Shown: positions 42,082 to 64,000, numbered from the stretch's first letter. The stretch: DNA of 64,000 nt from an uncultured delta proteobacterium (GCA_963841435.1 CAWJCS010000004.1:96001-160000); one strand, 5' to 3'. The notes: generated by a model not told the origin, from the letters alone. A program made the numbers and translations.

Positions 42082-42100
42082 CCGGGGCTGTCCCGAGAGG

Positions 42101-42126
42101 TGACGTGCGCCTCGCTCCGAGGTTCA
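42101..42126 (-). promoter_or_regulatory. Classical ECF-type promoter candidate
   Basis: Minus strand TGAAC-N16-CGTCA ending ~19 nt before ATG 42081. Confidence 0.4.
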
Positions 42127-42156
42127 AAAGATTCGGCTCGACCTCGTTTCGAGGCG

Positions 42157-44019
42157 TCAGGCGCGGGTTCTGCGGCGGCGCGCCATGCCGAACGAGCCGA
42201 GCGCGAGCGCCAGCATGCCGACCAGATCCATCAGGCGGGAAGGTGACGAGCCTGCCGCGCGGCAACCGCAGCCAGCCGGGTCGTCCGCCGTCCCCAGCGT
42301 CGGGTCCGCACCCGTCACGTCGCTTCCTCCGACCGACGATCCCGCGCTGCCGCTCGCGCCGCCCGTGCCGATCGTCGAGCTTCCCCCGCCGCCGAACGCA
42401 TTGCCGCCCGAAGCGCCGGTGCCCGCCTGGGGAACGGTGCCTCCACCACCTGCAACGCCGCCTGTACCCGAAGCGGTTCCTCCGGAGCTCGTGCCCGCGC
42501 CGCCCGCGCTCTGTCCGGCGCCGCCCGCGGTGCCGCCTGCGCCTCCGCTGTCGGAGCCCGCGCCGCTCGCTCCGCTCGCGCCCGCGCCGCCACTGCCCGC
42601 AGCGCCGCCCGTGGAAGCGCCGCCCGTGGAAGCGCCGCCCATGCTGCCCGCAGCGCCTCCGTCGCTTGCTCCACCCGCGCCGTTGCCGCCGCTTCCGGCG
42701 CCGCCTGCACCGGCCATGGCGCCAAACTCGTAGGCACCGAGGTCCGGCGCCGAGCCGACGTAGGGAAGTGCAACGTCGGTGCCCTTGTCGATGAGTGGGC
42801 TACCGGACTTCAGCTTGAGAAAATCGATCGCCGGCATGCTGCCGTCGGCCTGTCGTGGCCCCGTGAAGCCGGTGTCGGAGGTGCTCGCGAAGTCGCCCGA
42901 GGCCTCGGAGATGCCGAGGTCCCACGTGTTGTGGTCCGTGTCGACCCCGTTCATGTTCGAGTTCTTGTTCGGGAAGCCGACGTTGTTTCTCATCCGGTGG
43001 ACGAGCGACCCCGATAGGGTGATGGTCGTGTTCGGGTCACCGGCGGGGCTTGCGAGCATGTTGTACTGCACGCCGTTGTTGTACGACGTGTTGTTGAACC
43101 AGTTGTTGCCGCCCGAGGAGTGGTTCGCGTAGAAGCCCGCCGCCTTGTTCTTCCACGCGACGTTGCGCTGCACGACGTGCCTCACGCCGGTGTCGCTGCT
43201 GCCCATCTTGAAGCCGTTGCCGTTGCCGTCGGGGGGACTCGTGGAACCGCCGTTGGCGTAGCCGTTCTGAATGGCCCAGCTGTCTTCGACGGTGACGGGA
43301 TATTCTTGTTGGATCAGGTCGTAGCCATCGTCGGAGTTGAGCCAGGCCCGGCAACCGCGAATGACGGTGCTGCTCCCGCTCATCTGGTAGTGCACGCCGA
43401 ACCCGTCGGCGTTCTGCCCGTCGCCCTGGCTGCCGTTCTTGTCGTAGTTGTCGTGCGAATCACAGTTCAAGATCAGGTTGCCGCCGTTGCCCTTGGAGAT
43501 GAAGAGCCCCGACCCGAACCCGTGGTGGAGGTTCAAGAGCTCGAAGACGTTGTTGCTCGCGCCTTCACTGCGCACGAGCGTGTACGAGTGGGCTCCGCTC
43601 GCGCCCAGTTTCGCGTTCGAGACCTCGAAGCCCCTCAAGTGCAGAAAATTCCCGGTCACGAGGATCACCGGCACGTCCGCAGCGGTGTTCGAGGTGGCGT
43701 ACTGGGAGCAATCGAATATGGGCAGCTCCGACTGATAGGCGAAATACTTGATGCGGTTCGTGTCCGACTGCCCGCTCTTCGAAAGCTTGACCTGCGTCTT
43801 CAGGGAGTACGTGCCACCGCGGATCCACACGGTGTCGCCTGCTGCGGCGACGTCGTTGCCCTTCTGCAGCGACGCGAACGGTTGATCGACCGTGCCCGGA
43901 TTGGAGTCGCTACCGGTCGGGGCGAGGTAGTAGTCCGCGGCGATCGCGAGTCGGGAGACGAAGCAGGGGAGCAGGCAGGCGGACGCCCCTGCCAACACGT
44001 TCATTGTCTTGTGTCTCAT
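42157..44019 (-). CDS. PL9-like (PelL-type) pectate/rhamnogalacturonan lyase + Gly linker + MYXO-CTERM
   Basis: YYLAPTGSDSNPGT, GDTVWIRGGTY, NADGFG, RAWLNSDDGYD, GNGNGFKMG, APDLGAYE; GCGCR..TM..RRRR tail. Confidence 0.88.
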   Translation of the reverse strand: MRHKTMNVLAGASACLLPCFVSRLAIAADYYLAPTGSDSNPGTVDQPFASLQKGNDVAAAGDTVWIRGGTYSLKTQVKLSKSGQSDTNRIKYFAYQSELPIFDCSQYATSNTAADVPVILVTGNFLHLRGFEVSNAKLGASGAHSYTLVRSEGASNNVFELLNLHHGFGSGLFISKGNGGNLILNCDSHDNYDKNGSQGDGQNADGFGVHYQMSGSSTVIRGCRAWLNSDDGYDLIQQEYPVTVEDSWAIQNGYANGGSTSPPDGNGNGFKMGSSDTGVRHVVQRNVAWKNKAAGFYANHSSGGNNWFNNTSYNNGVQYNMLASPAGDPNTTITLSGSLVHRMRNNVGFPNKNSNMNGVDTDHNTWDLGISEASGDFASTSDTGFTGPRQADGSMPAIDFLKLKSGSPLIDKGTDVALPYVGSAPDLGAYEFGAMAGAGGAGSGGNGAGGASDGGAAGSMGGASTGGASTGGAAGSGGAGASGASGAGSDSGGAGGTAGGAGQSAGGAGTSSGGTASGTGGVAGGGGTVPQAGTGASGGNAFGGGGSSTIGTGGASGSAGSSVGGSDVTGADPTLGTADDPAGCGCRAAGSSPSRLMDLVGMLALALGSFGMARRRRTRA

Positions 44020-45632: not shown

Positions 45633-46643
45633 TCAAGGGAGCGTCGCGGAGTCCATCAAGAGCTGCCAGAAGCGGCCGGTTGCCGCCTCGCCGTTCGATT
45701 CGGTGACGACCCAGACGTTCCCGCCCGCGTCGGGGACCAGGAGCGGCTCGGTGCCGTCCCAGCCTGAAAACGAAAACCGCATCACGCCGACCGTGAAGGA
45801 CGGAATGCCGACGGCGAGCACGCCGATCTGGTCCGAAGCGAGCGGGGTGCCAAAAATATCGGGCTGCTTCGCGCGCATCCAGGCGCCGAGCGGATTGTCG
45901 GGAAGCGCGCCGAGCCGATCATCGGGCACGTCGGTGAGCTGGTCGTAGTAGGCGCTCACCTGCACGTAGCGGAGCCGCTCGGCGACAATCGCGTCGGCCC
46001 AAGGGTCCATCTCGCCATTGGGGATGCCCATGTGTGCCACCGGCTCGGCACCGAGCGACACCGTGCCCAGCGAGGCGACGACGACGATGCGCTCGGCCAC
46101 GGTGGGATCGATGAGGTAGGCGTCCGCGACGTCGGTGAGGCGCCCGCCCGTCACGACGACCGTCGGCCGGTCCGGTTGGCTCAGCCGCGAGGAGGTTTCG
46201 ACGATGAAGCGCGCGCCCTCGGAGTCATTCGGCGTCGTCGATTCGACGGTATCATCGTCAGGCCGCACGAGCGAGTCACCGACGCTTCGGATCGGATCCG
46301 GCAGCCCCGTGAGGCCGCTCGCGCGCGCGCTCGCCACGAGCTCTTGCCACCCGCTGAAATTCGCTTCGAGATCGTACCACATGCCGCCCGTGCTCACGAC
46401 GAGCCCCGTGAGCTCGGGAGCGCGCTTTTGAGCCAGGAGCACCGCGTACTCGCCCTGCCAGTTGTCGTACGCGCCGTCGTTGCAGAGGATGATCGGGTTC
46501 TCTGCACCGACCGGCAATAGCGCCTGCGTGCGGTCGGAGCCCGCGTCCAGCGTTCCGGAGCACGCAGTGACGCCGGAGCCCAGCGTGCACGACACGATCA
46601 GGCGAGCAATGGCGGACGCCGACGCGGCACTTCGCGGGCTCAC
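45633..46643 (-). CDS. Lipoprotein with nucleoside-hydrolase-like domain
   Basis: GTG start overlaps upstream stop (GTGA); VTAC lipobox; IILCND, SEGARFIV, VVVTGGRLTDVADAYLIDP..ERIVVVASLG. Confidence 0.7.
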   Translation of the reverse strand: MSPRSAASASAIARLIVSCTLGSGVTACSGTLDAGSDRTQALLPVGAENPIILCNDGAYDNWQGEYAVLLAQKRAPELTGLVVSTGGMWYDLEANFSGWQELVASARASGLTGLPDPIRSVGDSLVRPDDDTVESTTPNDSEGARFIVETSSRLSQPDRPTVVVTGGRLTDVADAYLIDPTVAERIVVVASLGTVSLGAEPVAHMGIPNGEMDPWADAIVAERLRYVQVSAYYDQLTDVPDDRLGALPDNPLGAWMRAKQPDIFGTPLASDQIGVLAVGIPSFTVGVMRFSFSGWDGTEPLLVPDAGGNVWVVTESNGEAATGRFWQLLMDSATLP

Positions 46644-47347
46644 GGAGCTTGCCGGATTGCTTGCTCGATACGGGGCAAGAGCACGCTGCGCGGGAACTGC
46701 GCGCGAAAGCGCTCCGCCGCCCGGCGAGCCTCGGCGGTTCGCCCGAGACCCGAAAGCGCGGTGACCCGCAGCGCTTCTCGCTCTTCCCGCAGGCGTCCCG
46801 TGGGGAAGCGCCGTTGATGCTCCGCGATCGCGCCGAGGGCAGCTGTGTGGTTGCCGTCGGCCACCGCCGCTCGCGCCTTCTGCAAAAGAGCGAGCTCGGC
46901 CCCGTAGGCGTCGCTCGAGGACGCTGGGCGCGGCGCAGCGGTCGCCTCGGCCTTCGGCACGACCTCGGGCCCTCGGTTGCTCGCTGCCGGGATGGGTACA
47001 CCGGTCGCGGGCGGAACCGGCGGTGCCGTATGGGTCGTCGCGTGCGGCTCGCTCAGGACAGTCGCCGAGGGTGCTCCCACCGGCGACTCGTCTCCCTGCG
47101 GACGGGACCGCTGCCAGGTCGCGTAGGCCGCGACCGCAAAAGCCGTCGTCGCGCCAATCGCGACGAGCTGAGGCATCCTTCGCCTCCAAAATCCCAGCGG
47201 CGGGGTCGCTGCGGCGTCGCGCAGCGCCGTGCGCGCGCGGGCCAGCGCCCGAAGACGCAACGCTTCGGATTCAGGAGGGATGCCCCGCTCCGCCGCTAGC
47301 AGGCGCTCGGTCTCGTCGGACAACGGCTCGATAGTGCTCGCCCTCAT
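46640..47347 (-). CDS. Putative anti-sigma factor (single TM, Pro linker, C-terminal TPR-like domain), cassette 1
   Basis: ATGA-coupled to the ECF sigma; YGAELALLQKARAA..EHQRRFPTGRLREEREALRV..FRAQFPRSVLLPRI. Confidence 0.8.
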   Translation of the reverse strand: MRASTIEPLSDETERLLAAERGIPPESEALRLRALARARTALRDAAATPPLGFWRRRMPQLVAIGATTAFAVAAYATWQRSRPQGDESPVGAPSATVLSEPHATTHTAPPVPPATGVPIPAASNRGPEVVPKAEATAAPRPASSSDAYGAELALLQKARAAVADGNHTAALGAIAEHQRRFPTGRLREEREALRVTALSGLGRTAEARRAAERFRAQFPRSVLLPRIEQAIRQAP

Positions 47348-47895
47348 CGCTCCACTCCCTTCTGCAGCGCCCGAACGGCGCCCTCGAACTCTCGCCGCGC
47401 CTTGCGCAGGCGCGAGTACCCGGTAAAGAGGGGCAGCGACAAGGCCTTTGCAATCTCGCGCATCGGGACTCCATCGATATCGTGCATCACGAAGACCGCA
47501 CGACGGGTGAGCGGCACGCGATCCAGGGCTTTGAGCACGAGAGCACGGGAGCGAGCTCTGTCGAGCGCCGCCTCGGGCCCGGGTGCCGGGCTTTCGAGGT
47601 CGTCGAGCGACCCCGGAATCTCACGCCGCGCACGTCGCCTTCGTGCTGCGACGACCCGGAAAGCGATGCCGAAAAGGTACGGGCGAAGCGGTCGGGACGC
47701 GTCGTATTCGACCCACTTGCGATGGAGCACCAGGAACACCTCCTGCACCTCGTCCTCAACGTCCTCCGGACGCACGCCGAGTCGCCGCAGAGTTCGGCAC
47801 AAGTAATCGAATTCCTTCTGGAAAGCATCGAAACAGGAACCTCGCTCAATCACGCTTGCCGCCGGAGCCGAAAAGACAAGCTGCGCCAAACCCAT
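47344..47895 (-). CDS. ECF RNA polymerase sigma factor, cassette 1
   Basis: Region 2 LRRLGV..DVEDEVQEVFLV..LRPYLFGIAFR; region 4 RRAVFVMHDIDG..EIA..TGYSRLRKAR. Confidence 0.93.
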   Translation of the reverse strand: MGLAQLVFSAPAASVIERGSCFDAFQKEFDYLCRTLRRLGVRPEDVEDEVQEVFLVLHRKWVEYDASRPLRPYLFGIAFRVVAARRRRARREIPGSLDDLESPAPGPEAALDRARSRALVLKALDRVPLTRRAVFVMHDIDGVPMREIAKALSLPLFTGYSRLRKARREFEGAVRALQKGVER

Positions 47896-47905
47896 TCTCT
47901 CATGA

Positions 47906-47933
47906 GATTGCTGCCCGGCCCGGCGAATTGTCA
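47906..47933 (-). promoter_or_regulatory. Candidate ECF promoter, motif A (TGACAA-N17-CAATC)
   Basis: Directly upstream of ECF1; same words and spacing at 53091-53118. Confidence 0.5.
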
Positions 47934-48932
47934 CTGGAAAAGTGCGGCAAGGTCGCCCCCAAGGCCGAGACTCACGGGGGGCATCCTCCACACGGCTTTG
48001 CCGTTCAAGGTCACGTCCCAGGAAACGAGTGGCGCGAGCGCTTCGATGCGGAGCAGAAGAAGCCCGTGAGACCCAAAGCGCTGGTGGACCGACAGGCGCA
48101 ACCCGACCTGCTCGACGAGCCCCGAGGGCGAGCGCGGCATGTCAACCCCGAAGCCTCGCACGCGCAGGACGCCGAGCTTGTTCACGACGCAGCCCGACCA
48201 CGGCTCGATGAACCCGCAGGCGGCAAACGTGCTTGCGAGGAGGCTTTGCTCGAAGCCTTGGTCGCTGGCGGTCGCGTGACGGGCCCACAGGCTCGCTTCC
48301 GCTCCGAGCTCGAGACCGAGCTCACCTCGTCCCACGCCAGCGAAGAGCCGTCCCTCGGGAACCGCACGGGGCGCCAGGCCGAAACCCACGCTGGGGCCAA
48401 GGCCGACAAGGAAGCGCCAGTTCGAATGCCTCGGAGGGCCGGGGTCGACAGGGCCATCGGCGACTCGACGCGCAGGATCGGGTCGCGTCGTCGTCGTCGC
48501 CTCTGCGGATTTCGCGTCGGCACGGGCGGGTGACGAGGGCCGTGCGGCGTCGGCGGCGGGAGTCTCCAGACTCAAGAGCTGGATCTGGACCGCGAGCGTG
48601 AAGCCCATCGCTTTGACGAAGGCAGCGCAGTCCGGGTCATCGGACGCAAGGTCTCGTTCGCCGCGTGAATTTCCCTGGTCATCGTACCAGCGCACGAAGC
48701 CCCGGATCCCGCGCTCCGCGGCTTCGGCCCGCGCCACGATCACCTGCGGTGAGTCGGCTCGGAACGGGTCGTAGCCGAGCTGCCTTTCGACCATGCCTCG
48801 GAACGTCTCCTCGTTCGGGCAGGCGCCCAAGCCAGCGTCGGTCTGGTATCGCAGGTCGACGAACAGCCTGGACTCCGCGTGGGCCACCCTCGAGCCGAGG
48901 GCCACGATGAGCATCGGCAACACCCGCGCCAT
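47931..48932 (-). CDS. Exported protein with beta-strand-rich C-terminus (possible small outer-membrane barrel), cassette 1
   Basis: Signal peptide ending AHA; CP...LGYDPF; MGFTLAVQIQLL; Pro linker; amphipathic strands ending LFQ; homolog at 58819-59856. Confidence 0.8.
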   Translation of the reverse strand: MARVLPMLIVALGSRVAHAESRLFVDLRYQTDAGLGACPNEETFRGMVERQLGYDPFRADSPQVIVARAEAAERGIRGFVRWYDDQGNSRGERDLASDDPDCAAFVKAMGFTLAVQIQLLSLETPAADAARPSSPARADAKSAEATTTTRPDPARRVADGPVDPGPPRHSNWRFLVGLGPSVGFGLAPRAVPEGRLFAGVGRGELGLELGAEASLWARHATASDQGFEQSLLASTFAACGFIEPWSGCVVNKLGVLRVRGFGVDMPRSPSGLVEQVGLRLSVHQRFGSHGLLLLRIEALAPLVSWDVTLNGKAVWRMPPVSLGLGGDLAALFQ

Positions 48933-49053
48933 GGGTGTGCCAAACCGCGAGATCGCGGGTCTTCGAGTCAGCGCGTCGGCCTGGGGTTCGGCTACCATCG
49001 CCCGAGGCCTGCAGGCTACACCATGGCGCTCCGCGAGCGCCGTCGCCCACAAA

Positions 49054-53084: not shown

Positions 53085-53090
53085 ACGAGT

Positions 53091-53118
53091 GATTGCCTCC
53101 CCGCACCTGCTTTTGTCA
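53091..53118 (-). promoter_or_regulatory. Candidate ECF promoter, motif A, upstream of GH31
   Basis: TGACAA-aagcaggtgcggggagg-CAATC ending 6 nt before GTG 53084. Confidence 0.5.
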
Positions 53119-53174
53119 TCAAAATGGTGTTGGGCGCCGCGCCCGGCGCACGAGCGCCCCGGTGGCGCGCGGCC

Positions 53175-54002
53175 TCACCCCTCGTAGGAGAGCTGCATCT
53201 GTTCGCGCAGGCCGGAGAAGAATTGCCGTGGACCGCAGCCGAGCTCGGTATGAAAGGTGCGGTGGCACTGCGAATACGAGCCGAAGCCCGCGGCGCTCGC
53301 AGCCGTCATCAAGTCGCGCGTCCCGGCGTCGAGCAGCCGGATGAAGTGGAGGAGACGGAGACGCATGCGATACCGGACGAGCGTCATGCCCATATCACGG
53401 TGAAAATGGCGACTGACCTCGCTCGGATGTGTTCTGAGCTCCGACGCCAATCCGCTCAGCGCGAGCTCGGGCGCGTTCGCCAAGAGCTTCAACGCGCGCC
53501 GCGTCAGGACGTGGGTCGCAGGCCTCGGGCGCTCGACGGCGCGCTGCCCCAACCAGTGGGCTCGCTGCCATAGCTCGGCGGCGAGTTGCTCGGCGCCGGC
53601 ACGATCGACGATCGCTCCGGCTCGAACGACCGCGTCGTCGAATTCGATCGCGCCGAGGCGCACGTGAAAGGGCGATGTCCCCTCACCGCTTTTGCTTAGC
53701 GCTTGCTCCGAGAGTTGGCGGTCCAGACCGATGGCAAAGAGATAGAGGTCCGGCGAGCCTTCGATCAGAACGTGATCCTGGCCCGGGGGGAAAGCGAGCA
53801 ACTCACCCCTGCCGGCTCGAACCACTCTGTCGCCGACCCCGAACGTTGCAGAGCCCTTGACGACGAGATTCAGCTCCGGCTCGTCGTGAAAATGACGCGG
53901 CCGCCGCCCTCCGACACAGCGCGAGTACTTCCAGACGAACGCGCGCTCGTCCCCCGCCGGCAGAAACCGCTGGTAGAGGGCGCTCTCTTCGACGTTGACC
54001 AT
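53175..54002 (-). CDS. AraC family transcriptional regulator (cupin + HTH)
   Basis: RHFHDEPELNLV cupin; SRHFHRDMGMT..YRMRLRL; AGFGSYSQCHRTF..GCGPRQF. Confidence 0.93.
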   Translation of the reverse strand: MVNVEESALYQRFLPAGDERAFVWKYSRCVGGRRPRHFHDEPELNLVVKGSATFGVGDRVVRAGRGELLAFPPGQDHVLIEGSPDLYLFAIGLDRQLSEQALSKSGEGTSPFHVRLGAIEFDDAVVRAGAIVDRAGAEQLAAELWQRAHWLGQRAVERPRPATHVLTRRALKLLANAPELALSGLASELRTHPSEVSRHFHRDMGMTLVRYRMRLRLLHFIRLLDAGTRDLMTAASAAGFGSYSQCHRTFHTELGCGPRQFFSGLREQMQLSYEG

Positions 54003-54230
54003 GGGGGCACCCAACGCACGCGTGGCCTGCGAGCACCGCGAGCTTTAAATCTCTGACACGCTCGCTCGGTGACCACCAGCGGCTGGCCGAGTTTCCCCAA
54101 AAAACGCGAACTTGGCCCGTAGCCAGCCAGCGGCGGTGGCCGGAGACCCGTGCGGCAGCCTTCGCGGACCATGCCGCCGGGGGGAGCTTCCCGAGCCGCG
54201 GGGGGACTTCCGCGCGGCCGATGCGTTCCG

Positions 54231-55647
54231 CTACAAGGACGTGAAGAACGACCGAGACGTCTTCGGGGACCCAGGTACAAGGGCACGTCAACGAGCAGCT
54301 CTTGGGTGGCGTCGCGCACGAATTGAACAGGTCCGAAGTCCCATCGACGATGGCGTTGCCGTGACCTGACTGGTGGACGCACCAACGGAGGGGGTGCCCG
54401 CTCGAGCATCCCGCGTAGTCCGTGCAGACATGCCCCCCGGGGCTCAAGTAGGGGGGAGGCTGAGCTGGCTGCGGTGGGTTCTGAACCGTGCAGCCGTTGT
54501 TCTTGACGAACCTGTCGCGTATCGGCGTTGCCAGGCTCATCGGACACGTCGTGTCCTCGAGGCCGACCATCTGCCACAACGCGATGGGGTCGTTGCCGCC
54601 GTCGCACCCGCTGAGCTGCGCACCTTCGTAGATCGCGGCCCCACGAAACGAGTTCGCGCGGGCACACGCGAGCTCGTACGTCATGCCGCCGCCGTAGCTG
54701 AAACCGTTGGAGAAAAGGTGCGTCGTGTCAACGCAGTAGTTTTCCTCGATCAACTGGATCATGTCGTCAACGAACTTCAGATCCTGTCCGCCAGAATTGG
54801 GCCAGCCGTTGCCGAGGCCCTGGGGCGCGACGAAGATCGCGCCGTTGTTCGACAGGCTCTGGAGTCCGAAATGGGCCATGATGTACCCATTCGATCCGCC
54901 GGTATCAACGTCCTTGGACGTGCCGCCGTTCCAGTGAAAACCGAAGATCAACCAATAGGGTTTGTTCTGATCGTAGTTGTCGGGAAGCCTCATGGCGAAG
55001 CCACGAGTCTGACCGCTACTCTGGATGGTGACGTAGCCGCCGTCACCGACGCCCACGGTCTGCCCGGACTCGCCCGGCACCGATCCGAACGTGATCGTCA
55101 ACGCCTTGCCGCACCCAGCGCTCGGCACGGCGCCGCCCGAGCCGCCGTTGCCACCCGAGCCGCCGCTCCCGGACACTCCCGCCATCCCGGCGCTCCCGCT
55201 TGCGCCGCCCGTCGAGCTATCTCCCGCGGACCCGGCGCGACCCGCTGCGGCCGCATCGCCGCCAACCCCGGCCATCCCGCTCGAGCCTGCGCCGCCGCCC
55301 CCGTCGCCCGAGCCCGCGGAGCCGCTCGAGGCTCCGGCGCCGCCTGACGCGAGCGTACCGCCCGAGGCACCCAGGCCGCCGGTTGCGCTCGTCCCGCCGG
55401 TACCGGGCAGACCGCTCGTACCGCCTGACCCCAGGGCAGCGGTGCCACCGACTGCGCCCGTGCCGGCGTTGCCCGCGGAGCCGCCGAGGCCGCCCCCACC
55501 GCCGAGCCCGCCGCTGGCAGAGGCTCCGCTCGAGGTGCCCGCGGTACCGCCAACGGGCACGGTGTCCTTGCTGCCATTGCAAGCCCCAGCCGAGATGACG
55601 ACCACCGCGGCGACGGCGCGGTGCAACCGGTGTGAAACGAGACGCAT
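54231..55647 (-). CDS. CE1/feruloyl-esterase-like alpha/beta hydrolase lipoprotein; apparent +1 indel at ~54254
   Basis: AGAC lipobox; VPSAGCG, LPDNYDQNKPY..FGFHW, FVAPQG, GFSYGG nucleophile elbow; removing one base gives the ending PEDVWSFFTSL*. Confidence 0.85.
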
Positions 55648-55666
55648 GCGCTCTCCTCTGAGGAGT

Positions 55667-55691
55667 CTGTCGGCTGGCAGAGGTTCTTGTC
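55667..55691 (-). promoter_or_regulatory. Candidate ECF promoter, motif B, upstream of the esterase
   Basis: GACAA-N12-GCCGACAG. Confidence 0.45.
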
Positions 55692-55758
55692 GAACAATCG
55701 CGGGGAACGTCGCTCCGAGGGCCCTTCGCCACTCGCCTCGGAAGCCGGCCTCTTTTTC

Positions 55759-55784
55759 GTCAACAGAGACCGGCTTGCCGACAG
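55759..55784 (+). promoter_or_regulatory. Candidate ECF promoter, motif B, upstream of GH29
   Basis: GTCAA-N13-GCCGACAG, same words and spacing as 60040-60065. Confidence 0.5.
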
Positions 55785-55839
55785 AAGAGCTCGACGAAGT
55801 ATTGCTCGCAAAGCGCGGCGCTTCGACGCAGTAGGCATC

Positions 55840-58514
55840 ATGGGTCCCCGTCGCTCATCATTTGGCTCGGCGGTGGTGGTGTCGGTGCTGCTCTGCCTCG
55901 CGGCATTCGGCGTCGGCGGTTGTTCGGAAGAGAGCCCGGCACCAGGGTCCCCGAGCGGCGTCGGCGCCAACGGCGGCGGCGGGGTGAGTGGTGGCGGTGG
56001 AGCAGCCACCGGTGGAAGCGCGGGCATTGGGGGCGCCGCCGCTGCGACGGGCGGGTCAGCTGGGACCGCGGGCGCGGCAGCTCAGGGCGGGGGTGGCGGG
56101 CAAGGGGTCGGAGGCAGCGCGGCGAGCAGCGCCGTCGGTGGCTCGAGCGGTTCAGGAAATGGCGGGGCGGGCGCCGCCGGCACGGGCGGCGTTGCGGGGA
56201 CCGGGGGTGCCGCGGGGGCCGCGGGCGCGGCCGGCATGAGTGGCGGATTCGCGCTGCCCGTGAAGCCAGACCCAGTCAACGGGGCATCGACGGTGACGGA
56301 CGGCGCCGCTTCCGGAGGCTCTTCGATTGGCCTGGTCAACCCGGGGCAGGGCGCTCAGGCCACGGGCCTGCCCGCCGCTAGCAAGCTGGCGATTCACTAC
56401 GCATCGGTGTCCGTGGGCACGATCAGCGTTTCGATCGATGGCCAGGCGGCGGTGAAGGTGAACGTTCATTCGACGGGTGCTCTCACCGGCTCGTTCATCT
56501 ACGCCATCATCAGCATCGCGATTCCAGCCGACGGGACGGTCACCATCAGCCGGGCCAGCGGTGACGTTGCGGTCAACATCGACGAGATCATCGTCGGCGA
56601 CGGCACGCTGGGGCTCCCGCCGGACATCTGGAACCTGCCGCCTTTCCCTGTCGCCGCAGGCCCCTACGTCGCCGACTGGAAGGCGCTGGGCCTGGCGTAT
56701 GCAACGCCCGAGTGGTGGCGTGACGCCAAGCTCGGGGCGTGGGCTCACTGGGATCCGCAATCGATGCCCGAGCAGGGCGACTGGTACGCCTACCGCATGT
56801 ACCAGGAGGGCTCGGCCGACTACACCTACCAGTGTGATCACTTCGGTCATCCGTCAACCTATGGCTACAAGGACATCTGCAAAACTGGGTGATCGACCAG
56901 TGGGACCCGAATGCCCTGATGGATCTCTACGTGCAGATGGGGGCCAAGTTCTTCATGGCGATGGGCGCGCACCACGACAACTTCGACTGCTGGGACTCGA
57001 CGTACCAGCCTTGGAACTCCGTTCGGGTCGGCGTGAAGGTGGACCTCGTCGGTACGTGGGAACCGATCGCGCGCCAGCGTGGCCTGCGTTTCGGCATCGG
57101 GTTTCACAACACGCCAGCGCGAACGTGGGGTCAGTGGATGCCGGTGCGCTACACCAGCGACAAGCAGGGGGCGAATGCGGGCGTTCCCTACGATGCGTTG
57201 CAAACCATTCTGGATGGAAAGGGAAAGTGGTGGGAAGGCATGGATCCGGTGGATCTCTACGGTCCGCTCCATGCTTCCAGCGACCCGTCAGCCACGTCGC
57301 CCTATGCGACTCAGTTCATGTACCGCGTCGATGAAGCCATCGACAAGTACCATCCCAACGTCGTGTATTTCGACGACCACGCCGGCGATTCCCAGGTCAA
57401 CCTGGGAGTCCACATGGGATTGGCGGCCCTCGCTCCGATGATCTTGGCAAACTACTACAATAAGTCCATGAGCTTCAAGCAGGGGAAGATGGACGTGGTC
57501 ATGAATATGAAGGGTGTGGGCGGCCAATACGACAGCTTCCAAAATAGCGCGGCGCTTCTTCCCTTCGCCGAGCGCGCCCTGGTCAGGAGCACCGAGGCGA
57601 GCACCGAGCCGCAGATCAGCGCCTATCCCTTCCAGACGGAGCTGAGCATTCAGGATTGGCACTATCAGACCGGGCAGGGATACACGGACGCCGCCACGCT
57701 GGTGACGACTCTGATGCAAAACGTTTCCCGAAACGGGAGCTTGTTGCTCAACCTCACCCAGCACGGCCGAGGGGATCTCGATTCCCAGTGCGTTCAAATC
57801 GCTCAGGACATCGGCGGCTGGCTGAAGATCAACGGCGAAGCAGTGTATGGGTCCCGCCCGTTCGAAGTCATGGGCGACACCACGGTCGCTTACACGCGCA
57901 ACAACGGCTACGTCTACGCCACACTGCTCGGCTGGAACGGCGGCGCGATCACGCTCAAGGCCTTGAGCAGCGGCGGGGCGACGCTCGGCACCGTATCCAA
58001 GGTCGAACTGCTCGGCTCGACCGTCCCGTTGACCTTCACGCAGAACAGTCAAGGGCTGACGGTAACCCCGAGCGGCACGGTTCCGGCGCAATCGGGGATC
58101 ACGAACCAAACCCTGGCGTCGAGGACCCGAGTGTTGCGCGTCACTCACGACAAGGGCTGGATCAACGACGACGATCCGGGCTCGACGGCTCCCGGATGGC
58201 TGCGCAAGTGCAACCTGGGTGCCGGTGACTACAACAACGATCTCACCACGAGCACCGCCGCGGGGGACGTTTGGACTTCAGCCTTCACGGGCACCGACCT
58301 CGCCGTGTACGCCCCGAAGGAAGCGGGGAGTGGGGAGATCGAGCTCCAGATCGACGGTCAAACCCGCGCAACGGTTGCTCTTTCGACCACTGGCGCTCGT
58401 CAGGCTCAGCAGTTGGTCTCCGAGGTGACCGGGTTGGCTGCGGGCAATCATTCCATCAGCATCGTCAACCGCGGCCCAGGGCCCGTGGCGGTGGATGCCA
58501 TCGTCGCTAGGTAG
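55840..58514 (+). CDS. GH29 alpha-L-fucosidase-like lipoprotein; apparent -1 indel in the A-run at ~56881
   Basis: VGGC lipobox; Gly linker; PEWWRDAKLGAWAHW, GYKDICK(N)W, GAKFF..AHHDNF, YHPNVVYFD, VSRNGSLLLN, WLKINGEAVYGSRP. Confidence 0.88.
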
Positions 58515-58571
58515 GCGCGACTCCCCGTCCGAGCGTGGACAGGGAGTCGCACCGCGCGCTTGCTGACGAGG

Positions 58572-58691
58572 CTAGGCGTGCGCGAGCCTGCGGGTCCCGT
58601 GCGACCGCAGTCGGATGCCGAGCACAATCAGCAGGGTTCCGAACATCATGGCGTAGGTGGCGATCATCCACGACACGGCCAGGGCGCCGGC
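58572..58691 (-). pseudogene. C-terminal fragment of a HdeD/DUF308-like membrane protein
   Basis: AGALAVSWMIATYAMMFGTLLIVLGIRLR..* resembles HdeD C-termini; rest of the gene absent. Confidence 0.55.
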
Positions 58692-58818
58692 ACGACTGCC
58701 GAAAGCCCGGCGGCAAACGGGCACGGGGCCCGAGGAGGCCGGCGCGGCGCGGGCCTCGGGGCTCAGCCCCGGGGGCCGACGGGCCCTGGGGCGCCGCGCC
58801 TGGGGTAAGGTCGGCACC

Positions 58819-59856
58819 GTGCGGAACGCGTGGTCGGTCGTGCTCGCCTTCGCCATGGTGCTCGGGGTGGGGCGTCTCGCCCACGCCCAGGCGAGCGCAC
58901 CGGAACCCATCTTCAGCGCATCGTTCGACTACGTCGCACCGCCCACGTGTCCGAGCTCCGGCGACTTCAAGGCGGTCGTCGTCGGTCGGCTCGGCTTCAA
59001 TCCGTTCAGCAAGGACGCACTGGAGCGCGTGCTCGTGCTGATCACGGCACGAGAGGAAAGGCTGGAAGGGCGAGTCGAATGGCGCGACGACAAGGGCGAC
59101 TGGGCGGGAGACCAAACATTTCCGGCACCCGATGACGATTGTACGAAGCTCGTGCACACCATGGGCTTTGCCCTCGCCGTGCAGATCAATCTGCTCGCCA
59201 CGGGTGGCCGTCCCACACGCTCGAAGGCAGCGCCCGCGGAAGGGGAAACGGGTGGTTCGCCGGAGAAGCGGGCAGCCAAGGCACCTCGACCCGCCGCACC
59301 GAAGACGAAGGCGCGGGCAGACGTCCCGCGAGCTCCGGGGGCGGACGACGAGCGGAAGCGTGCGCGCTGGGTGTTTTCGCTGGGCGCGGGCGGCTCGGTC
59401 GGCTTCGGCCTGGCGTCGAGCGCGCTACTGCTCGGGCGCGCGTTCGGCAGCGTCGCCAGGGGACGCGCCTCGTTGGAGCTTGGTGGGGAGGTCTCGACTC
59501 TGAACGTCACGCAGCGCGCCGACGGAGCGGGCTTTGCCCAGCGCGCGTTGCTGGCGAGCGCGGCCGCCTGCGGCACGCAAGAGCCGTGGAGCCTCTGTGT
59601 CCTCGCCAAGGCCGGTGTGCTGAAGATCACCGGGCGGGGCGTCGATGTGCCGGCGTCGCCGACCGGCACCGCGCTCCAGGCCGGGTTGCGCTTCGGCGCT
59701 CGGGAGCGGATCGCCGGCAGCGTCTTTTTCGCGCAGCGGCTCGACGGTCTCGTCAATCTGACGCGCTGGACCGTAACGCTCGACGGATTCCGGGTTTGGA
59801 GGGCCCCGACCCTCGCTGGAATGCTGGGTGTCGATGTAGGTGTGATCTTTCAGTGA
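58819..59856 (+). CDS. Exported protein with beta-strand-rich C-terminus, cassette 2
   Basis: Signal peptide ending AHA; CP...LGFNPF; MGFALAVQINLL; ACG..EPWS.C; ends IFQ; homolog of 47931-48932. Confidence 0.8.
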   Translation: MRNAWSVVLAFAMVLGVGRLAHAQASAPEPIFSASFDYVAPPTCPSSGDFKAVVVGRLGFNPFSKDALERVLVLITAREERLEGRVEWRDDKGDWAGDQTFPAPDDDCTKLVHTMGFALAVQINLLATGGRPTRSKAAPAEGETGGSPEKRAAKAPRPAAPKTKARADVPRAPGADDERKRARWVFSLGAGGSVGFGLASSALLLGRAFGSVARGRASLELGGEVSTLNVTQRADGAGFAQRALLASAAACGTQEPWSLCVLAKAGVLKITGRGVDVPASPTGTALQAGLRFGARERIAGSVFFAQRLDGLVNLTRWTVTLDGFRVWRAPTLAGMLGVDVGVIFQ

Positions 59857-60039
59857 ACACGGCACGCGGTCCCGACAATGTCGCATTGAAGGAGCACGCA
59901 TGTCGATCGGGCTGGGATTGGAACGTCGAACGGTTCTCGCTGGGGAGCCGCACCGCCCGGGCACGGCTGCCGAAAGCCCCCCCGGGACGGGCTTTCGTGG
60001 CGCGTCGGGAGCCTCGGGAGGCAGACGGGCGAGATTTCT

Positions 60040-60065
60040 GTCAAAAGGTAAGGGCCAGCCGACAG
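60040..60065 (+). promoter_or_regulatory. Candidate ECF promoter, motif B, upstream of ECF2
   Basis: GTCAA-N13-GCCGACAG ending 5 nt before ATG 60071. Confidence 0.5.
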
Positions 60066-60070
60066 TCAAG

Positions 60071-60628
60071 ATGAACGTGGGCTATCTCCGCCTCGTCCAG
60101 GCCCCGCCGACCGAGCCGGTCGCCGAGGATGCGTGCGTCCAGGCTTTCGATCGGGAGCTCGACTACGTCTTCGCAACGCTCCGTCGCCTCGGAGCGCCGC
60201 CGAGCGATGTCGAAGACCTCGCGCACGACGTGTTCGTGGTGCTGCTCCGGAACTGGGCAACGCTCGACACCGAGCGCCCGCTCCGGCCATACCTGTTTGG
60301 GGTCGCCTTTCGCATCGTGTGCGCGCACCGGCGCCGACGCGTGCGCGAGGTGCCGCATCCCGCGCCGGACTCCGAGGACGCCGGGCCCAGTCCCGAGCGG
60401 ACGCTCCAAGCGCACGAGGCGGCGGCGGTGCTTCAGGCAGCCCTCGAACGCGTTCCCCTCCCGCGGCGTGCCGTCATCATCATGCACGAGCTCGACGGTA
60501 TTCCGATTGTCGAGATAGCGAAGGAGCTGTCGATCACCCGGTTTGGCGCCTACGCGAGGCTGCACAAAGGACTCAAGGAGCTCGCTACCGCGGTGCGACG
60601 TCAAAAGCTGCACGGGGTACGGCCATGA
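60071..60628 (+). CDS. ECF RNA polymerase sigma factor, cassette 2 (alternative in-frame start at 59900)
   Basis: LRRLGA..DVEDLAHDVFVV..LRPYLFGVAFR; RRAVIIMHELDG..EIA..YARLHKG. Confidence 0.93.
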   Translation: MNVGYLRLVQAPPTEPVAEDACVQAFDRELDYVFATLRRLGAPPSDVEDLAHDVFVVLLRNWATLDTERPLRPYLFGVAFRIVCAHRRRRVREVPHPAPDSEDAGPSPERTLQAHEAAAVLQAALERVPLPRRAVIIMHELDGIPIVEIAKELSITRFGAYARLHKGLKELATAVRRQKLHGVRP

Positions 60629-61344
60629 GCCGGCGCGAGACCCCCGGCGAGGTCAGCGTGCAAGCGCTGCTCGACAGCGCCAAGGCGGTACCGCCACAGC
60701 CGCAGGCGGTGCGAGCACGCGTGCTCGAGCGCGCGCGAACGACGGCGGCGTCAGCACCGCCCGTGAACGTGGTCGCGCCGGCTGCGCGTCCCCGCTTCCC
60801 GAGTCACTGGGTGGGCAAAGCGGCAGCCGCTGCGGTTGGCGTGGGGATCGCCGGCACCGTGTACGCGCTCGGTGGTGGCTGGCCACGACCCGAAGCTCCC
60901 GTTCGAGCAGCGTCGTCGCCGGCCGTCAGCAGTCGTACGGCGCCGCCGGCCGTGCCGGTGCCCGCTCCGGCGCCGGTCGCGCCGCGACCCGAGCCCCCAT
61001 CCAAATCGAGCGTTCTACCCGCGGCCGAGCCCGCGGCGCCGAGCACGCCGCGTCAGGGCAGGGGACAACAGAATTACGGCGCCGAGCTCGAGCTCATGCG
61101 CAGCGCCCACACGGCGTACGCGGCCCACGAATTTGCGAACGCGCTCGTGTTGGTCAGCGAGCACGCGCGGCGCTTCCCGCGCGGGCTCCTCGCCGAAGAG
61201 CGCGAAGCGTTGCGCGTGCGGTGCCTCGCCGGCTCGGGGCGCGTGAACGAAGCGCGACGCGTCGCGGCGTCGTTCGCGAAGCGCTTCCCACGCAGCGTGC
61301 TTCTGCCGCGGCTCCAGGGGGACCTGGGGACGGGCGCCGAATAG
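60625..61344 (+). CDS. Putative anti-sigma factor (single TM, C-terminal TPR-like domain), cassette 2
   Basis: ATGA overlap with the ECF; YGAELELMRSA..EHARRFPRGLLAEEREALRV..FAKRFPRSVLLPRL. Confidence 0.8.
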   Translation: MSRRETPGEVSVQALLDSAKAVPPQPQAVRARVLERARTTAASAPPVNVVAPAARPRFPSHWVGKAAAAAVGVGIAGTVYALGGGWPRPEAPVRAASSPAVSSRTAPPAVPVPAPAPVAPRPEPPSKSSVLPAAEPAAPSTPRQGRGQQNYGAELELMRSAHTAYAAHEFANALVLVSEHARRFPRGLLAEEREALRVRCLAGSGRVNEARRVAASFAKRFPRSVLLPRLQGDLGTGAE

Positions 61345-61459
61345 ATCCCGGCGAACCCAAGCGGTCGTCAGAGCCTCGGAATACCGGCAGGGCGTAACCC
61401 GCGGTGCTCCCGCGATCTTTGCGGTGCACAGGCCCCTCGCCTCCGACAGTAGCTTCCTA

Positions 61460-64000
61460 GTGGATACTTTGCGATTCTCTGCGCGCTTTCGTTCGCGAGA
61501 AGGCACCGACCAAAGTGCCGTCTCCCGATCACGCGGGGCAGGATGGCTCGTCGCCGTGGCGATGCTCGTCGCCTGCGGGTCTCCCGAGGCGCCCGCGCCC
61601 GTAGAAGGCGCGGGCGGTCACACCGGAGGGAACGGAGGCGCCGCTGCAACGTCCGGTGCGGGCGCGGGTCAAGCGGGTGGACCGACGGGCGGCGCGGCGG
61701 CGCAAGCCGGGGCGTCTTCGGGGTCGAGCGCTGGAGGAAGCGCGAACGCCGGAGCGGCGGGGTCGGGAGGGAACGGTGCCGGCGGAACGAGCGCGGGCGC
61801 TGCAGGCCTGGCGAGCGGGGGTAGCGCGATGGGCGGGGCAGGCTCGGGAGGTGCCACCGGCGGTGTGGCGGGTGCCGGCGCTCTCGCCGGCGCGGGCGGC
61901 ACGGGCGGGGAGCCCGATCCCGGACCTGGCTACTACGTCTCGCCCGCGGGCAGTGACGACAATCCGGGCACCGCGAGCGCCCCGTTTCAGACGGTGGCGA
62001 AGGCGCGCGACGTTGTCCGCGCGCTCGGCGGCAGCATGACGGACGACCTCCACGTGTACCTCCGCGGCGGGACGTACCGTCTCGAGAGCACGCTCACTTT
62101 CGGCCCCGAGGACTCCGGGAAGAATGGGCACCGGATCCACTATCAAGCCTATCCGGGGGAGACTCCGGTTCTGAGTGGTGCGATCGCCGTCACCGGTTGG
62201 ACGCCGTACCAGGGCGGCATCTATCAAGCGAAGCTTGGCCGAACGACGAAGCTCCGCAATCTGTACGTGAACGACGCGCGCGCCAAGATGGCCAGCAAGT
62301 CCGCCACGGCGCGCGGCGGCTCCGGTACGTACTCCGTGACGGCTGGACAAGCGACCTGGGCCTGGGCGAGCGGGAGCGGGAGTGACGGCGTGAAATACGA
62401 CACGTCAGCCGTGTCGGCGGTGAGCACCAACAAAGACGACCTCGAGATCGTCAACGGCACGACCTGGAACGAGAACATCGTCTGCGTGCGGGACGTCGTC
62501 ACGACGACGGACAACTACCGAGGCCTCCTCCTGCAGCAGCCGTACGGCGCGATCGCGCAGCTGCCCGGTTGGGGAGCGGGGTTCAGCACGTCAGGCACAC
62601 ACACGCTCTTCAATGCACTCGAGTTCTTGAGTCAACCGGGGCAGTTCTATTTCGACAAGACCACGGGCACGCTCTACTACTACCCCCGGTCGGGAGAGGA
62701 TCTGACGCAGGCCAACGTCGAGGCCCCGGTGCTCGAAGAGCTGGTCGACGTCGCCGGCACGTCAACTTCCGAGCGCGTACAGAACCTCACGTTCCAGGGG
62801 CTCACGTTCGCGCACACGGACTACTCGCTCGTGAACGTCGGCGGCTCGTGCGGCAAGGCCAGCGTCCAGGGCGCCACCGTGTTCACCGCTTTCGGCGACG
62901 GCAACTGGCACAACAGCAAGTACCAGATCATCGACACGCTGCCGGCGATGATCCACGTCACGAGCGCGGACTCGATCCAGTTCGTCGGCAACGTCGTCAA
63001 GCACAGCGGCAACGAGGGCATCTCGTTCATCAACAACGTCGTCAACTCCGAGATCACGGGCAACTACGTGACCGATATCGCGGGTAGCGGCATCACCATC
63101 GGTCACCCACAGCACGTGTACCTCGGTGACGGTGGAGCCCACGAGAAGTACCCGCCGGGTGTCGAGGGCATCTGTACCAAAAATTCGATCTCGAACAACG
63201 TGCTCGTCAACGTGAGCTCGCTACCTGGTTTCGGCGGGCATGCGGGTATCACGGCGTTCTTCGTCAACACCCTCTCGATCACGCACAACCACATCCAAGG
63301 TACCGCCTACAACGGCATCAACCTCGGCTGGGGCTGGACCAACTTTTTGGACTCGAAGACCGCGAAGAACAACACGGTCAGCTCGAACCGGCTCTTCGAC
63401 ACGCTGAGTCGGCTTCACGATAGCGGTGCCATCTACACGATCGGGCAGAACCCAGGCACCAACATCAATCAGAACTACGTGAAGGGTATCCCGCCCGCGA
63501 CGTCGGGACCCACCTACGGTCTGCACAACGACGAGGGCAGCGCGTACATCACCGAGAACGATAACGTCCTCGACGTCGATCCAGGCGTCAAATACACGAT
63601 CAACTGCGAAGATTTCGGCAACAAGCACGATCTGACCATCCTTCGCACGTACGCGACGGTGAACAAGATGGGTGTGAATCCGCCGAACAGCACCATCGAC
63701 CCGCCCGTCGCCGTTCCGGACGCCGTGTGGGCGCCGACTCAATACGCGACCTGCGTTGCGGCGGGCGTCGAGGACGCATTCAGGAGCGCCCTTCCGAGCG
63801 GCTTGATTGCCGACGCCGACTACGTGTTCCCGGCGAGCTGTGCAACGTCGTCGAGCGCGACGCCGAGCTTGCCGATCCGGAGCCTCGGAGACTCCGCGGC
63901 GACGGTGTGGTTCGCCCCGGCCGGAACGACGCAATTCGCCGAGGGTGCGAGCATGACGCGCGCCGCCGGCGACGCGACGTCGCTCGGCGTACCGACGGCC
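61460..64000 (+). CDS. GH141-like right-handed beta-helix glycoside hydrolase lipoprotein (runs off right edge)
   Basis: Manual translation from GTG 61460 (not in ORF track): WLVAVAMLVAC lipobox, Gly linker, YYVSPAGSDDNPGT..VYLRGGTY, PGQFYFD, YNGINLGWGW, HDSGAIYT, LHNDEGS. Confidence 0.8.
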   Translation, partial: MDTLRFSARFRSREGTDQSAVSRSRGAGWLVAVAMLVACGSPEAPAPVEGAGGHTGGNGGAAATSGAGAGQAGGPTGGAAAQAGASSGSSAGGSANAGAAGSGGNGAGGTSAGAAGLASGGSAMGGAGSGGATGGVAGAGALAGAGGTGGEPDPGPGYYVSPAGSDDNPGTASAPFQTVAKARDVVRALGGSMTDDLHVYLRGGTYRLESTLTFGPEDSGKNGHRIHYQAYPGETPVLSGAIAVTGWTPYQGGIYQAKLGRTTKLRNLYVNDARAKMASKSATARGGSGTYSVTAGQATWAWASGSGSDGVKYDTSAVSAVSTNKDDLEIVNGTTWNENIVCVRDVVTTTDNYRGLLLQQPYGAIAQLPGWGAGFSTSGTHTLFNALEFLSQPGQFYFDKTTGTLYYYPRSGEDLTQANVEAPVLEELVDVAGTSTSERVQNLTFQGLTFAHTDYSLVNVGGSCGKASVQGATVFTAFGDGNWHNSKYQIIDTLPAMIHVTSADSIQFVGNVVKHSGNEGISFINNVVNSEITGNYVTDIAGSGITIGHPQHVYLGDGGAHEKYPPGVEGICTKNSISNNVLVNVSSLPGFGGHAGITAFFVNTLSITHNHIQGTAYNGINLGWGWTNFLDSKTAKNNTVSSNRLFDTLSRLHDSGAIYTIGQNPGTNINQNYVKGIPPATSGPTYGLHNDEGSAYITENDNVLDVDPGVKYTINCEDFGNKHDLTILRTYATVNKMGVNPPNSTIDPPVAVPDAVWAPTQYATCVAAGVEDAFRSALPSGLIADADYVFPASCATSSSATPSLPIRSLGDSAATVWFAPAGTTQFAEGASMTRAAGDATSLGVPTA

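Follow-up and report, generated by a model that had tools for sequence, protein, structure and literature searches.

A short two-block DNA element precedes the gene of an extracytoplasmic function (ECF) sigma factor, here called ECF2, and several carbohydrate-active enzyme (CAZyme) genes around it in a 64 kb stretch from an uncultured delta proteobacterium (GCA_963841435.1, CAWJCS010000004.1:96001-160000; 68% G+C). This stretch, hereafter the window, is the part of the source genome that was covered. The sites are likely to be ECF-type promoters, each with a -35 and a -10 block at a fixed distance, read by RNA polymerase with ECF2 and in one or two cases with ECF1, the sigma factor of a paralogous cassette in the same window, and together they would define an autoregulated local CAZyme regulon. 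All results presented here are inferences from sequence.

The bipartite element in the window and in related genomes

The first-pass annotation had described five sites of a motif B, linking ECF2 to flanking CAZyme genes, and all five were found at the coordinates it reported, both by reading the sequence and by a regular-expression scan. They are GTCAA-N13-GCCGACAG close to ECF2 (60040-60065, +) and upstream of a glycoside hydrolase (GH) family 29 gene (55759-55784, +), GACAA-N12-GCCGACAG upstream of an esterase-like gene (55691-55667, -), GTGCA-N13-TCCGACAG upstream of a GH141-like gene (61424-61449, +) and GTGAA-N13-CCCGACAA farther upstream of ECF2 (59853-59878, +). They are indeed aimed at downstream starts, namely ATG 60071 or GTG 60077 of ECF2, ATG 55840 of GH29, ATG 55647 of the esterase-like gene and GTG 61460 of the GH141-like gene; for the 59853 site, the next start downstream is ATG 59900, followed by ECF2 itself. 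In the 64 kb window the octamer GCCGACAG alone is not enriched (7 found versus 5.81 expected, with at least 7 in 37 of 100 shuffles), nor is the hexamer CCGACA alone (55 versus 53.2 expected), and therefore only the pairing of the two blocks carries signal. The strict pattern G[TA]CAA-N12/13-GCCGACAG has three matches on both strands of the 64 kb, all inside 55667-60065, versus approximately 0.02 expected by arithmetic (173 G[TA]CAA sites x 2 spacings x 7/128000). Because this pattern was defined post hoc, after seeing the data, an independent matrix test was built.

The matrix draws on 78 loci (1.14 Mb) of Polyangia and Myxococcota metagenome-assembled genomes, retrieved via alignment of ECF2 relatives, in which one conserved bipartite element can be seen by eye in the DNA upstream of the sigma gene. 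It consists of a block of 13 nucleotides (nt), a gap of 10-13 nt and a block of 9 nt, and was refined solely on DNA upstream of ECF2 and ECF1 homologues in other genomes, with window DNA excluded from training. Its two main forms are TTTCGGTGAACAA-N12-(A/C)GACA(G/A)TA and TTTCTGACAAG-N11-CGACAAT, and in addition there is a third, TTTCTGAGAAGAC-N10/11-...CCAC(T/C)T. In the window, the matrix returns eight matches of at least 16 versus 0.58 expected and three of at least 20 versus 0.07, as estimated from 100 first-order Markov shuffles, among which the best score was 21.3. The five reported sites score 28.4, 28.1, 21.1, 19.9 and 16.3 and all belong to the window's eight best matches, and the matrix also picks ECF1's own site and a site before a GH31 gene. 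Motif frequency is thus at background for the octamer alone and above it for the two-block pattern and the matrix. Seven of the eight matches of at least 16 lie in intergenic DNA or at a gene 3' end and face a gene start. The sites and the ECF2 gene are as follows.

59848..59881, + strand: P1, distal ECF2 promoter-like site, TTTCAGTGAACAC-N12-CGACAATGT; score 28.4, the window's highest
60035..60068, + strand: P2, proximal ECF2 promoter-like site, TTTCTGTCAAAAG-N12-CGACAGTCA, which includes GTCAA-N13-GCCGACAG; score 28.1
60071..60628, + strand: ECF2, ECF sigma factor, 185 amino acids (aa) from ATG 60071 or 183 aa from GTG 60077
55754..55787, + strand: promoter-like site before the GH29 alpha-L-fucosidase gene, TTTTCGTCAACAG-N12-CGACAGAAG; score 21.1; ATG 55840 downstream
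61419..61452, + strand: promoter-like site before the GH141-like gene, TTGCGGTGCACAG-N12-CGACAGTAG; score 19.9; GTG 61460 lies 7 nt past the block
55664..55696, - strand: promoter-like site before the esterase-like gene; score 16.3; followed by a GAGGAG Shine-Dalgarno sequence and ATG 55647
53090..53124, - strand: ECF1-type promoter-like site before GH31, TTTTGATGACAAA-N13-AGGCAATCA; score 19.1; outside motif B, marking the edge of the ECF2 regulon
47905..47939, - strand: ECF1's own promoter-like site, TTCCAGTGACAAT-N13-CAGCAATCT; score 16.3; overlaps the stop codon of up1

Autoregulation of an ECF gene is usually marked by a conserved bipartite element that lies before it in a set direction. 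Under leave-one-out scoring, the sigma gene is preceded within approximately 126 nt by an own site of at least 16 in 57 of 75 loci, and a conserved bipartite -35/-10 motif is thereby found across the homologous loci. The same logic, in which a motif upstream of the sigma gene indicates autoregulation, is applied in the supplement of Casas-Pastor et al. 2021, in the part drawn on here (PMC7826278). In the window, P1 overlaps the TGA stop (59854-59856; …ATC TTT CAG TGA ACA…) of up2, the outer-membrane protein gene upstream of ECF2. This overlap with the upstream gene's stop codon recurs in most homologues and in the window's other cassette (cassette 1), and P1 is conserved in the closest relative (locus L001, 82% identity); P1 is therefore the ancestral position, and P2 is an extra proximal copy seen in the window and L001 only. 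The 59853 site, which had been ranked among the weaker ones, is instead the window's top match to the family consensus.

The motif type follows the sigma factor. In the ECF2 clade (30 rows; support of 100 in the Shimodaira-Hasegawa-like approximate likelihood ratio test, SH-aLRT), 29 rows carry type I, the TGAACAA form, and one is a low scorer. ECF1 belongs to the other clade; its closest neighbour there is L072, with the site GTGACAAT-N13-CTACAATTT. Placed on the sigma tree, the motif labels change 12 times versus a shuffled mean of 28.9, and none of 200 shuffles is as low; judged from this tree, motif type tracks sigma phylogeny and not the genome, and the window carries both types next to each other. 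Motif B had been taken as distinct from a motif A: two types do exist, yet they are not unrelated, and by their sequences they are variants of one family consensus, TTTC-N1-2-TGA(A)CAA ... CGACA(A/G)T. The third form, TTTCTGAGAAGAC, marks one sigma sub-clade of five rows (SH-aLRT 90; L033, L035, L040, L041 and L043), and cassettes of this form stand in tandem with a TGACAAG-type cassette in L035, L041, L055 and L057, where in the last two it is the second cassettes, near 10810, that carry the third form.

Beyond the sigma genes, the element is repeatedly wired to glycosidases. The 1.14 Mb of related loci hold 118 matches of at least 18, comprising 58 own sites in 57 loci and 60 others, versus approximately 4.6 expected in total at the window's shuffle rate. 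Fifty of the other sites have a downstream open reading frame (ORF) of at least 100 aa, and half of these non-own targets (25/50) are glycoside hydrolases by Pfam: GH54 (eight), GH31 (four, each in a different related locus), GH30 (three), GH10 and GH39 (two each) and GH127, GH141, GH51, GH2, GH3 and GH27 (once each). The remaining targets are seven ECF genes, four DUF1592/DUF1588 genes, 11 ORFs without a Pfam match and, as singletons, a sigma fragment, a TetR protein and a protein kinase. In the background, 17 of 106 ORFs are glycoside hydrolases (a random sample drawn from the 355 other ORFs of these loci), with E-value cut-offs of 1e-4 for the targets and 1e-5 for the background sample, and the enrichment at motif targets corresponds to a Fisher odds ratio of 5.2 (p = 1.6e-5). 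Because of this enrichment in related loci, the wiring of ECF cassettes to glycosidases is a recurrent design that extends beyond the window to many related myxobacteria of soil. The cassette of L001 is flanked by a divergent pair of sites, one before GH54 (followed by a GH141-like gene) and one before the up gene, a pair that resembles the window's back-to-back esterase/GH29 pair. In the window itself, no motif of at least 12 occurs upstream of up2 (58515-58818), where L001 has one scoring 17.5. DUF1592/DUF1588/DUF1595 (PSD/PSCyt) genes are recurrent targets (4/50; L011, L013, L027 and L038, and also L001 at 16711-16679), and they are common in the background sample too.

The element also lies unusually close to coding starts. 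In seven of 27 targets inspected elsewhere, an ATG stands 5-7 nt past the -10 block and is immediately followed by the coding sequence of a lipoprotein-type signal peptide, as in CGACAGTAA-cagctc-ATG MKS..., and the layout in the window is alike: the distance is 7 nt for the GH141-like gene, 5 nt for GH31 (GTG 53084, again opening into a lipoprotein-type signal peptide) and, from the P2 block end, 2 nt to ATG 60071 or 8 nt to GTG 60077 of ECF2. A GH141-like gene in L014 has a layout like the window's, and the N-terminus read from GTG 61460 resembles that of the L014 homologue. Because the -10 block is so close to several start codons, several of these mRNAs are probably leaderless or near-leaderless.

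This proximity bears on where ECF2 begins. The protein has the domains and length of an ECF (group 4 sigma-70) factor, with Pfam matches to Sigma70_r2 and Sigma70_r4_2 only and a match to the NCBIfam model TIGR02937 (64.2 bits versus a cut-off of 42.9). Most of the 120 ECF2 homologues listed have 182-187 aa and the N-terminus MGYLRL, which is also the start expected from GTG 60077. In the protein database, ECF2 of the window has 242 aa, which is probably too long, and starts in frame at ATG 59900, after AAGGAG-N6 downstream of P1. As a conserved product, this form was rejected: homologues start MGYLRL and the extensions are unconserved. The N-terminal extension of ECF2 is of low complexity, and neither ATG 59900 nor its Shine-Dalgarno sequence is conserved in L001; among over-long homologues, the extensions are conserved only in "RFLS" and "TV", which are the translated -35 and -10 blocks. 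Transcripts from P1 may yield the 242-aa form as a minor product. Time and again, gene callers seem to place the starts of this sigma family too far upstream, so that the annotated genes run over their own promoters, and recognizing the element would correct this recurrent annotation error.

Promoter type, cross-talk and alternative readings

Textbook ECF promoters have a -35 block with AAC, a -10 block with CGT or CGA and a spacer of approximately 16-17 nt. Type I combines TGAAC with CGAC at a GAAC-CGAC distance of approximately 14 nt, or 16 nt if ACAGT/ACAAT is counted as the -10 block, and the target sites of the window have GTCAAC or GTGCAC where type I has GTGAAC. Several points weigh against reading the sites as promoters of one ECF2 regulon. 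The distance of approximately 14 nt is below the usual spacer, and the fit improves when ACAGT/ACAAT is taken as the -10 block itself. In the type II variant, cTGACA-N16-GACAAT, there is some resemblance to a housekeeping promoter. Since the matrix learned from sites that precede sigma genes, extra matches inherit its T-rich 5' bias; one of the eight window matches (17.5, at 31673, +) lies inside a GH43 gene, where it is probably due to chance. In NCBIfam, ECF2 passes the cut-off of the generic ECF superfamily model only, and the literature consulted did not place it in a named ECF group. Cassette neighbourhoods are CAZyme-rich anyway (16% of background ORFs), and the GH29 gene carries a frameshift that may be a sequencing error or mark a pseudogene, which affects one target. 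The esterase site and P1 are not clearly ECF2-specific, and the -35 blocks and spacers of targets are no closer to the local sigma's own site than chance, as detailed below.

How far the two sigma factors of the window are kept apart was assessed with clade-specific matrices trained on other genomes, each site being scored with the ECF2-clade versus the other-clade matrix. The GH29 site (23.2 versus 13.4, +9.8) and the GH141-like site (25.4 versus 6.5, +18.9) are of ECF2 type, P1 (27.5 versus 25.8, +1.7) and P2 (27.0 versus 24.0, +3.0) are nearly neutral, and the esterase site is clearly of the other type (5.6 versus 16.6, -11.0); the ECF1 site (-4.9) and the GH31 site (-2.4) are also classified as the other type. 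By its sequence, the esterase site is a hybrid, with a GACAAG -35 block and ECF1-like spacing and a CGACAG -10 block. Across 30 pairs in 52 de-duplicated loci, the -10 blocks of targets are nearer to the local sigma's own -10 block than to those of other loci (6.23 versus 5.64 +/- 0.23, p = 0.007), whereas the -35 block and the spacer are no closer to the local own site than chance (p = 0.41 and 0.52). Insulation of the paralogous cassettes, which the first-pass annotation had attributed to a different -10, is therefore only suggested: the -10 match and the type-by-clade pattern speak for it, the -35 and spacer comparison, the other-type esterase site and the nearly neutral P1 speak against it, and an insulation acting chiefly via the -10 block is plausible from these comparisons. 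The proposal of a local ECF2 regulon fares similarly, in that the ECF2-type promoter look and the GH-linked sites are supported in silico, while the esterase site and P1 lack clear ECF2 specificity.

Cross-talk at the esterase gene and at P1 is accordingly a live possibility, and a rather unlikely though serious alternative takes it as the rule: ECF1 and ECF2, which are 49% identical, would read overlapping sets of promoters, with the esterase-like gene and perhaps P1 under ECF1 or under both. The preference of the esterase site for the ECF1 side and the small differences at P1 and P2 fit such a mixed assignment, as do the TTTC...CAA...CGACA(A/G)T core common to both types and the chance-level agreement of -35 blocks and spacers. 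Against it, the ECF2-clade matrix gives much higher scores than its counterpart to the GH29 and GH141-like sites, motif type tracks sigma clade across genomes, and the -10 blocks match locally.

Recognition of the motif by the housekeeping sigma factor, or by another regulator such as the AraC-family protein encoded at 53175-54044, with the nearby ECF genes incidental, is improbable. By eye, the type II variant agrees with 5/6 and 4/6 positions of the sigma-70 hexamers, and an AraC-family gene lies between the cassettes, with AraC-family genes in other loci as well. However, no motif site passes a sigma-70 consensus scan, whose sole match in 52900-61700 lies inside the ECF2 gene, and a sigma-70-type promoter reading was dropped on this ground; an Rfam search of 52000-62000 returned one sub-threshold match inside the GH29 gene and nothing at the sites. 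The motif type would also not be expected to change with the adjacent ECF clade inside one genome if another factor read it, and the motif is directional and non-palindromic, keeps a fixed short distance to start codons and precedes the sigma gene in 57 of 75 loci. Slightly less probable still is that the CAZyme-gene sites of the window are chance look-alikes and only the sites upstream of sigma genes functional. Those sites do score lower (21.1, 19.9 and 16.3) than P1 and P2, with a best shuffle of 21.3 and one in-gene match of 17.5 for comparison. Yet the excess of matches over the shuffles is large, each of the three sites is located in a short intergenic region, points toward the gene next to it and has a CGACAG -10 block, and the 60 non-own sites of the related loci exceed the approximately 4.6 matches expected in total and are GH-enriched. 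The reading of the sites as ECF-type promoters of an autoregulated CAZyme regulon is therefore the one we carry forward.

The putative signalling cassette and its known counterparts

The genes around ECF2 offer a candidate signalling route. They were mapped with a codon-position G+C screen and Pfam, together with tblastn, and the cassette genes are as follows.

58819..59856, + strand: up2, outer-membrane protein with a signal peptide, a periplasmic alpha/beta domain, a disordered linker and a small beta-barrel
60625..61344, + strand: anti2, putative single-pass anti-sigma factor, its start overlapping the ECF2 stop (ATGA)
45636..48998, - strand: cassette 1, with up1 (47931-48998), ECF1 (47344-47895), anti1 (46640-47347) and X (45636-46640)

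The overlap of sigma stop and anti-sigma start (ATGA) occurs in both cassettes, and tblastn identities between them are 49% for ECF1/ECF2, 48% for anti1/anti2 and 39% for up1/up2. In NCBIfam, anti2 has a weak anti-sigma match (NF052375, E = 4.6e-4; 20.3 bits versus a cut-off of 100). Its architecture recurs in 19 of 19 aligned sequences: a short conserved N-terminal region is followed by a hydrophobic segment, then by a Pro-rich linker and finally by a C-terminal domain of approximately 85 aa, which is conserved as well. For up2 there is no Pfam or NCBIfam match; its AlphaFold2 model (mean predicted local distance difference test score, pLDDT, 81.6) resembles OmpA, OmpX, OmpW, NspA and Ail barrels in Foldseek (best E = 1.2e-6). 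Of the 78 loci, 55 have an up-like gene; in 26 it immediately precedes the sigma gene, and in most of the others it lies approximately 1.1-1.7 kb upstream, with X between. A fourth recurring member of the cassettes, the X protein (approximately 330-380 aa), has a weak nucleoside-hydrolase match (IU_nuc_hydro) and is encoded in 44 of 78 loci, often between the up and sigma genes; in the window it follows anti1 in cassette 1 and is absent from cassette 2, as it is from L001. The window's X is 54-56% identical to those of L006 (8717-9865) and L012 (8726-9865). The idea that X is a diverged up2 was rejected, as the two have no similarity (hhalign probability 0.1), and X counts as a conserved gene in its own right.

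The periplasmic domain covers approximately residues 29-130 of up2, and the C-terminal domain approximately residues 148-239 of anti2. When these two domains were modelled as a complex, the score was 0.87, against 0.00 for the best of three controls; the 0.87 mark is reached by 116 of 157 solved complexes and by 2 of 215 mismatched pairs. The runs agreed in at least 94% of contacts, with a partner pLDDT of at least 88. Neither up2 nor anti2 has a sequence relative in the PDB with E below 0.4, and the pass is therefore unlikely to reflect memory of a solved complex. As a prediction, the model supports docking of the up2 periplasmic domain on the anti2 C-terminal domain.

Taken with the promoter sites, these features suggest how the system might operate. 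The putatively co-transcribed, single-pass anti2 would hold ECF2 at the inner membrane, and up2 is predicted to hold the anti2 periplasmic domain, because of which the signal probably enters through the envelope. Once anti2 is inactivated, ECF2 would transcribe its own gene from the tandem promoters P1 (59848) and P2 (60035), giving positive feedback, and would also transcribe the flanking GH29 fucosidase, GH141-like and probably esterase-like genes. The outcome would be a small local regulon that debranches plant cell-wall glycans. What the data show is the sequence pattern with its statistics and conservation, its link to glycosidase genes and the protein folds; the recognition by ECF2, the transcription starts, the leaderless translation, the signalling route and the inducing signal are inferred. 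As a tentative generalization, which we hold to be somewhat less likely than its negation, Polyangia may possess a large family of paralogous envelope-spanning cassettes, in which an ECF sigma factor and an anti-sigma factor are joined by a small outer-membrane barrel, docked on the latter through its periplasmic domain, and often by a nucleoside-hydrolase-like protein. Each cassette would have a private set of plant cell-wall glycosidases under clade-specific, often leaderless promoters. Such a family would be a TonB-independent counterpart of the trans-envelope signalling of polysaccharide utilization loci in Bacteroidetes.

The module resembles several described systems in part. Its two-domain sigma factor, the putative co-transcribed membrane anti-sigma factor in the +1 position and the bipartite motif reused at neighbours are shared with autoregulated ECF/anti-sigma modules, as far as the consulted sections of the ECF classification describe them (PMC7826278). 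Among myxobacterial groups, the same sections give the promoter motifs of ECF210 (Sorangium, Sandaracinus and Chondromyces) and ECF267 as "not conserved" and also list ECF216, with little analysis of any of the three; these passages on the groups, compared here by description only, make no mention of glycosidase targets or of an outer-membrane barrel partner (PMC7826278). Bacteroidetes ECF240 (formerly ECF10) is tied there to carbohydrate scavenging (PMC7826278), and the FecA-FecR-FecI/ECF240 arrangement outlined in these excerpts is alike in that genes for an outer-membrane protein, for an anti-sigma factor spanning the periplasm, which is putative here, and for an ECF factor stand together and are tied to glycan-degrading genes (PMC7826278). 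The FecA type differs in its outer-membrane component, which here is a small OmpA/OmpX-like barrel with a periplasmic domain and not a TonB-dependent transducer. Neither anti1 nor anti2 has a FecR-domain match in Pfam or NCBIfam, and up2 is not a TonB-dependent transducer with an N-terminal signalling domain. FecI-like groups lack autoregulation according to the supplementary entries used (PMC7826278), whereas the module here appears autoregulated.

A functional analogue is found in clostridial sigma-I/RsgI pairs, which, in the excerpts relied on, sense polysaccharides and drive cellulosome genes (PMC6056542, PMC10328401). The likeness lies in several paralogous sigma/anti-sigma pairs within one genome, each tied to its set of polysaccharide-degrading genes. 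The clostridial pairs differ in belonging to another sigma family; here the anti-sigma factor has no carbohydrate-binding or glycosidase sensor domain, only the helical domain of approximately 85 aa, and the host is Gram-negative with an outer-membrane partner. In the full-text literature searched, no description was found of ECF control of glycosidase genes in myxobacteria. The mechanism, an ECF regulon, is ordinary; what appears new is that the family is undescribed, that its partner in the outer membrane is unusual and that its targets are probably leaderless. The regulation of large plant-polymer enzyme sets in Polyangia myxobacteria appears undescribed. If the proposal is true, the rule TTTC-N-TGAACAA/TGACAA ... 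CGACA(G/A)T near a start codon would predict glycosidase-sigma pairing in many uncultured soil and peat genomes. It would also provide a natural set of diverging sigma/promoter pairs for studying the insulation of paralogous regulators, and would indicate that the outer-membrane partner of an anti-sigma factor can be of a new kind.

Neighbouring genes and minor observations

The genes adjoining the cassettes, and further CAZyme genes of the window (30879-44019) that have no motif of at least 12 upstream, are as follows.

55840..58514, + strand: GH29 alpha-L-fucosidase gene, its Pfam Alpha_L_fucos match split at model position 87
53803..55647, - strand: esterase-like gene, 614 aa, with weak NCBIfam matches to PHB-depolymerase-family esterases
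61460..64000, + strand: GH141-like beta-helix gene, running off the window; Pfam GH141_M (E = 1.3e-8) and Beta_helix
50331-53084, - strand: GH31 gene
53175-54044, - strand: AraC-family gene, between the two cassettes
30879-33002: GH43+CBM6 gene, no motif of at least 12 upstream
33102-34715: GH54-like gene, no motif of at least 12 upstream
37804-39387: GH43 gene, no motif of at least 12 upstream
42157-44019: Pel9A-like beta-helix gene, no motif of at least 12 upstream

The GH29 frameshift lies near 56885-56892 (within 56880-56895) at a run of A and divides the gene into ORFs 55840-56892, ending in TGA, and 56889-58514. Directly past the GH29 stop (TAG, 58512-58514), a G+C-rich hairpin at 58517-58550 (13 of 14 pairs, 6-nt loop) can be seen by eye; it was missed by the terminator scan because no T run follows, and it may separate GH29 from up2. 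A 112-aa minus-strand ORF (58572-58910) overlaps the 5' end of up2, has no Pfam match and is probably not a gene. The NCBIfam matches of the esterase-like protein (E = 2.6e-13 and 1.7e-5) both fall under the curated cut-offs. Its ORF, with a stop at 53803, overlaps by approximately 200 nt on the same strand with the AraC-family ORF, for which 54014 and 54044 are possible starts and in which the AraC cupin match begins at approximately residue 45; co-transcription of the two genes is possible. Farther away, the region 9424-29847 codes for large proteins that are secreted or contain repeats (VWA/YfbK, RCC1 repeats, DUF4215 and PA14) and several long ORFs without a family match.

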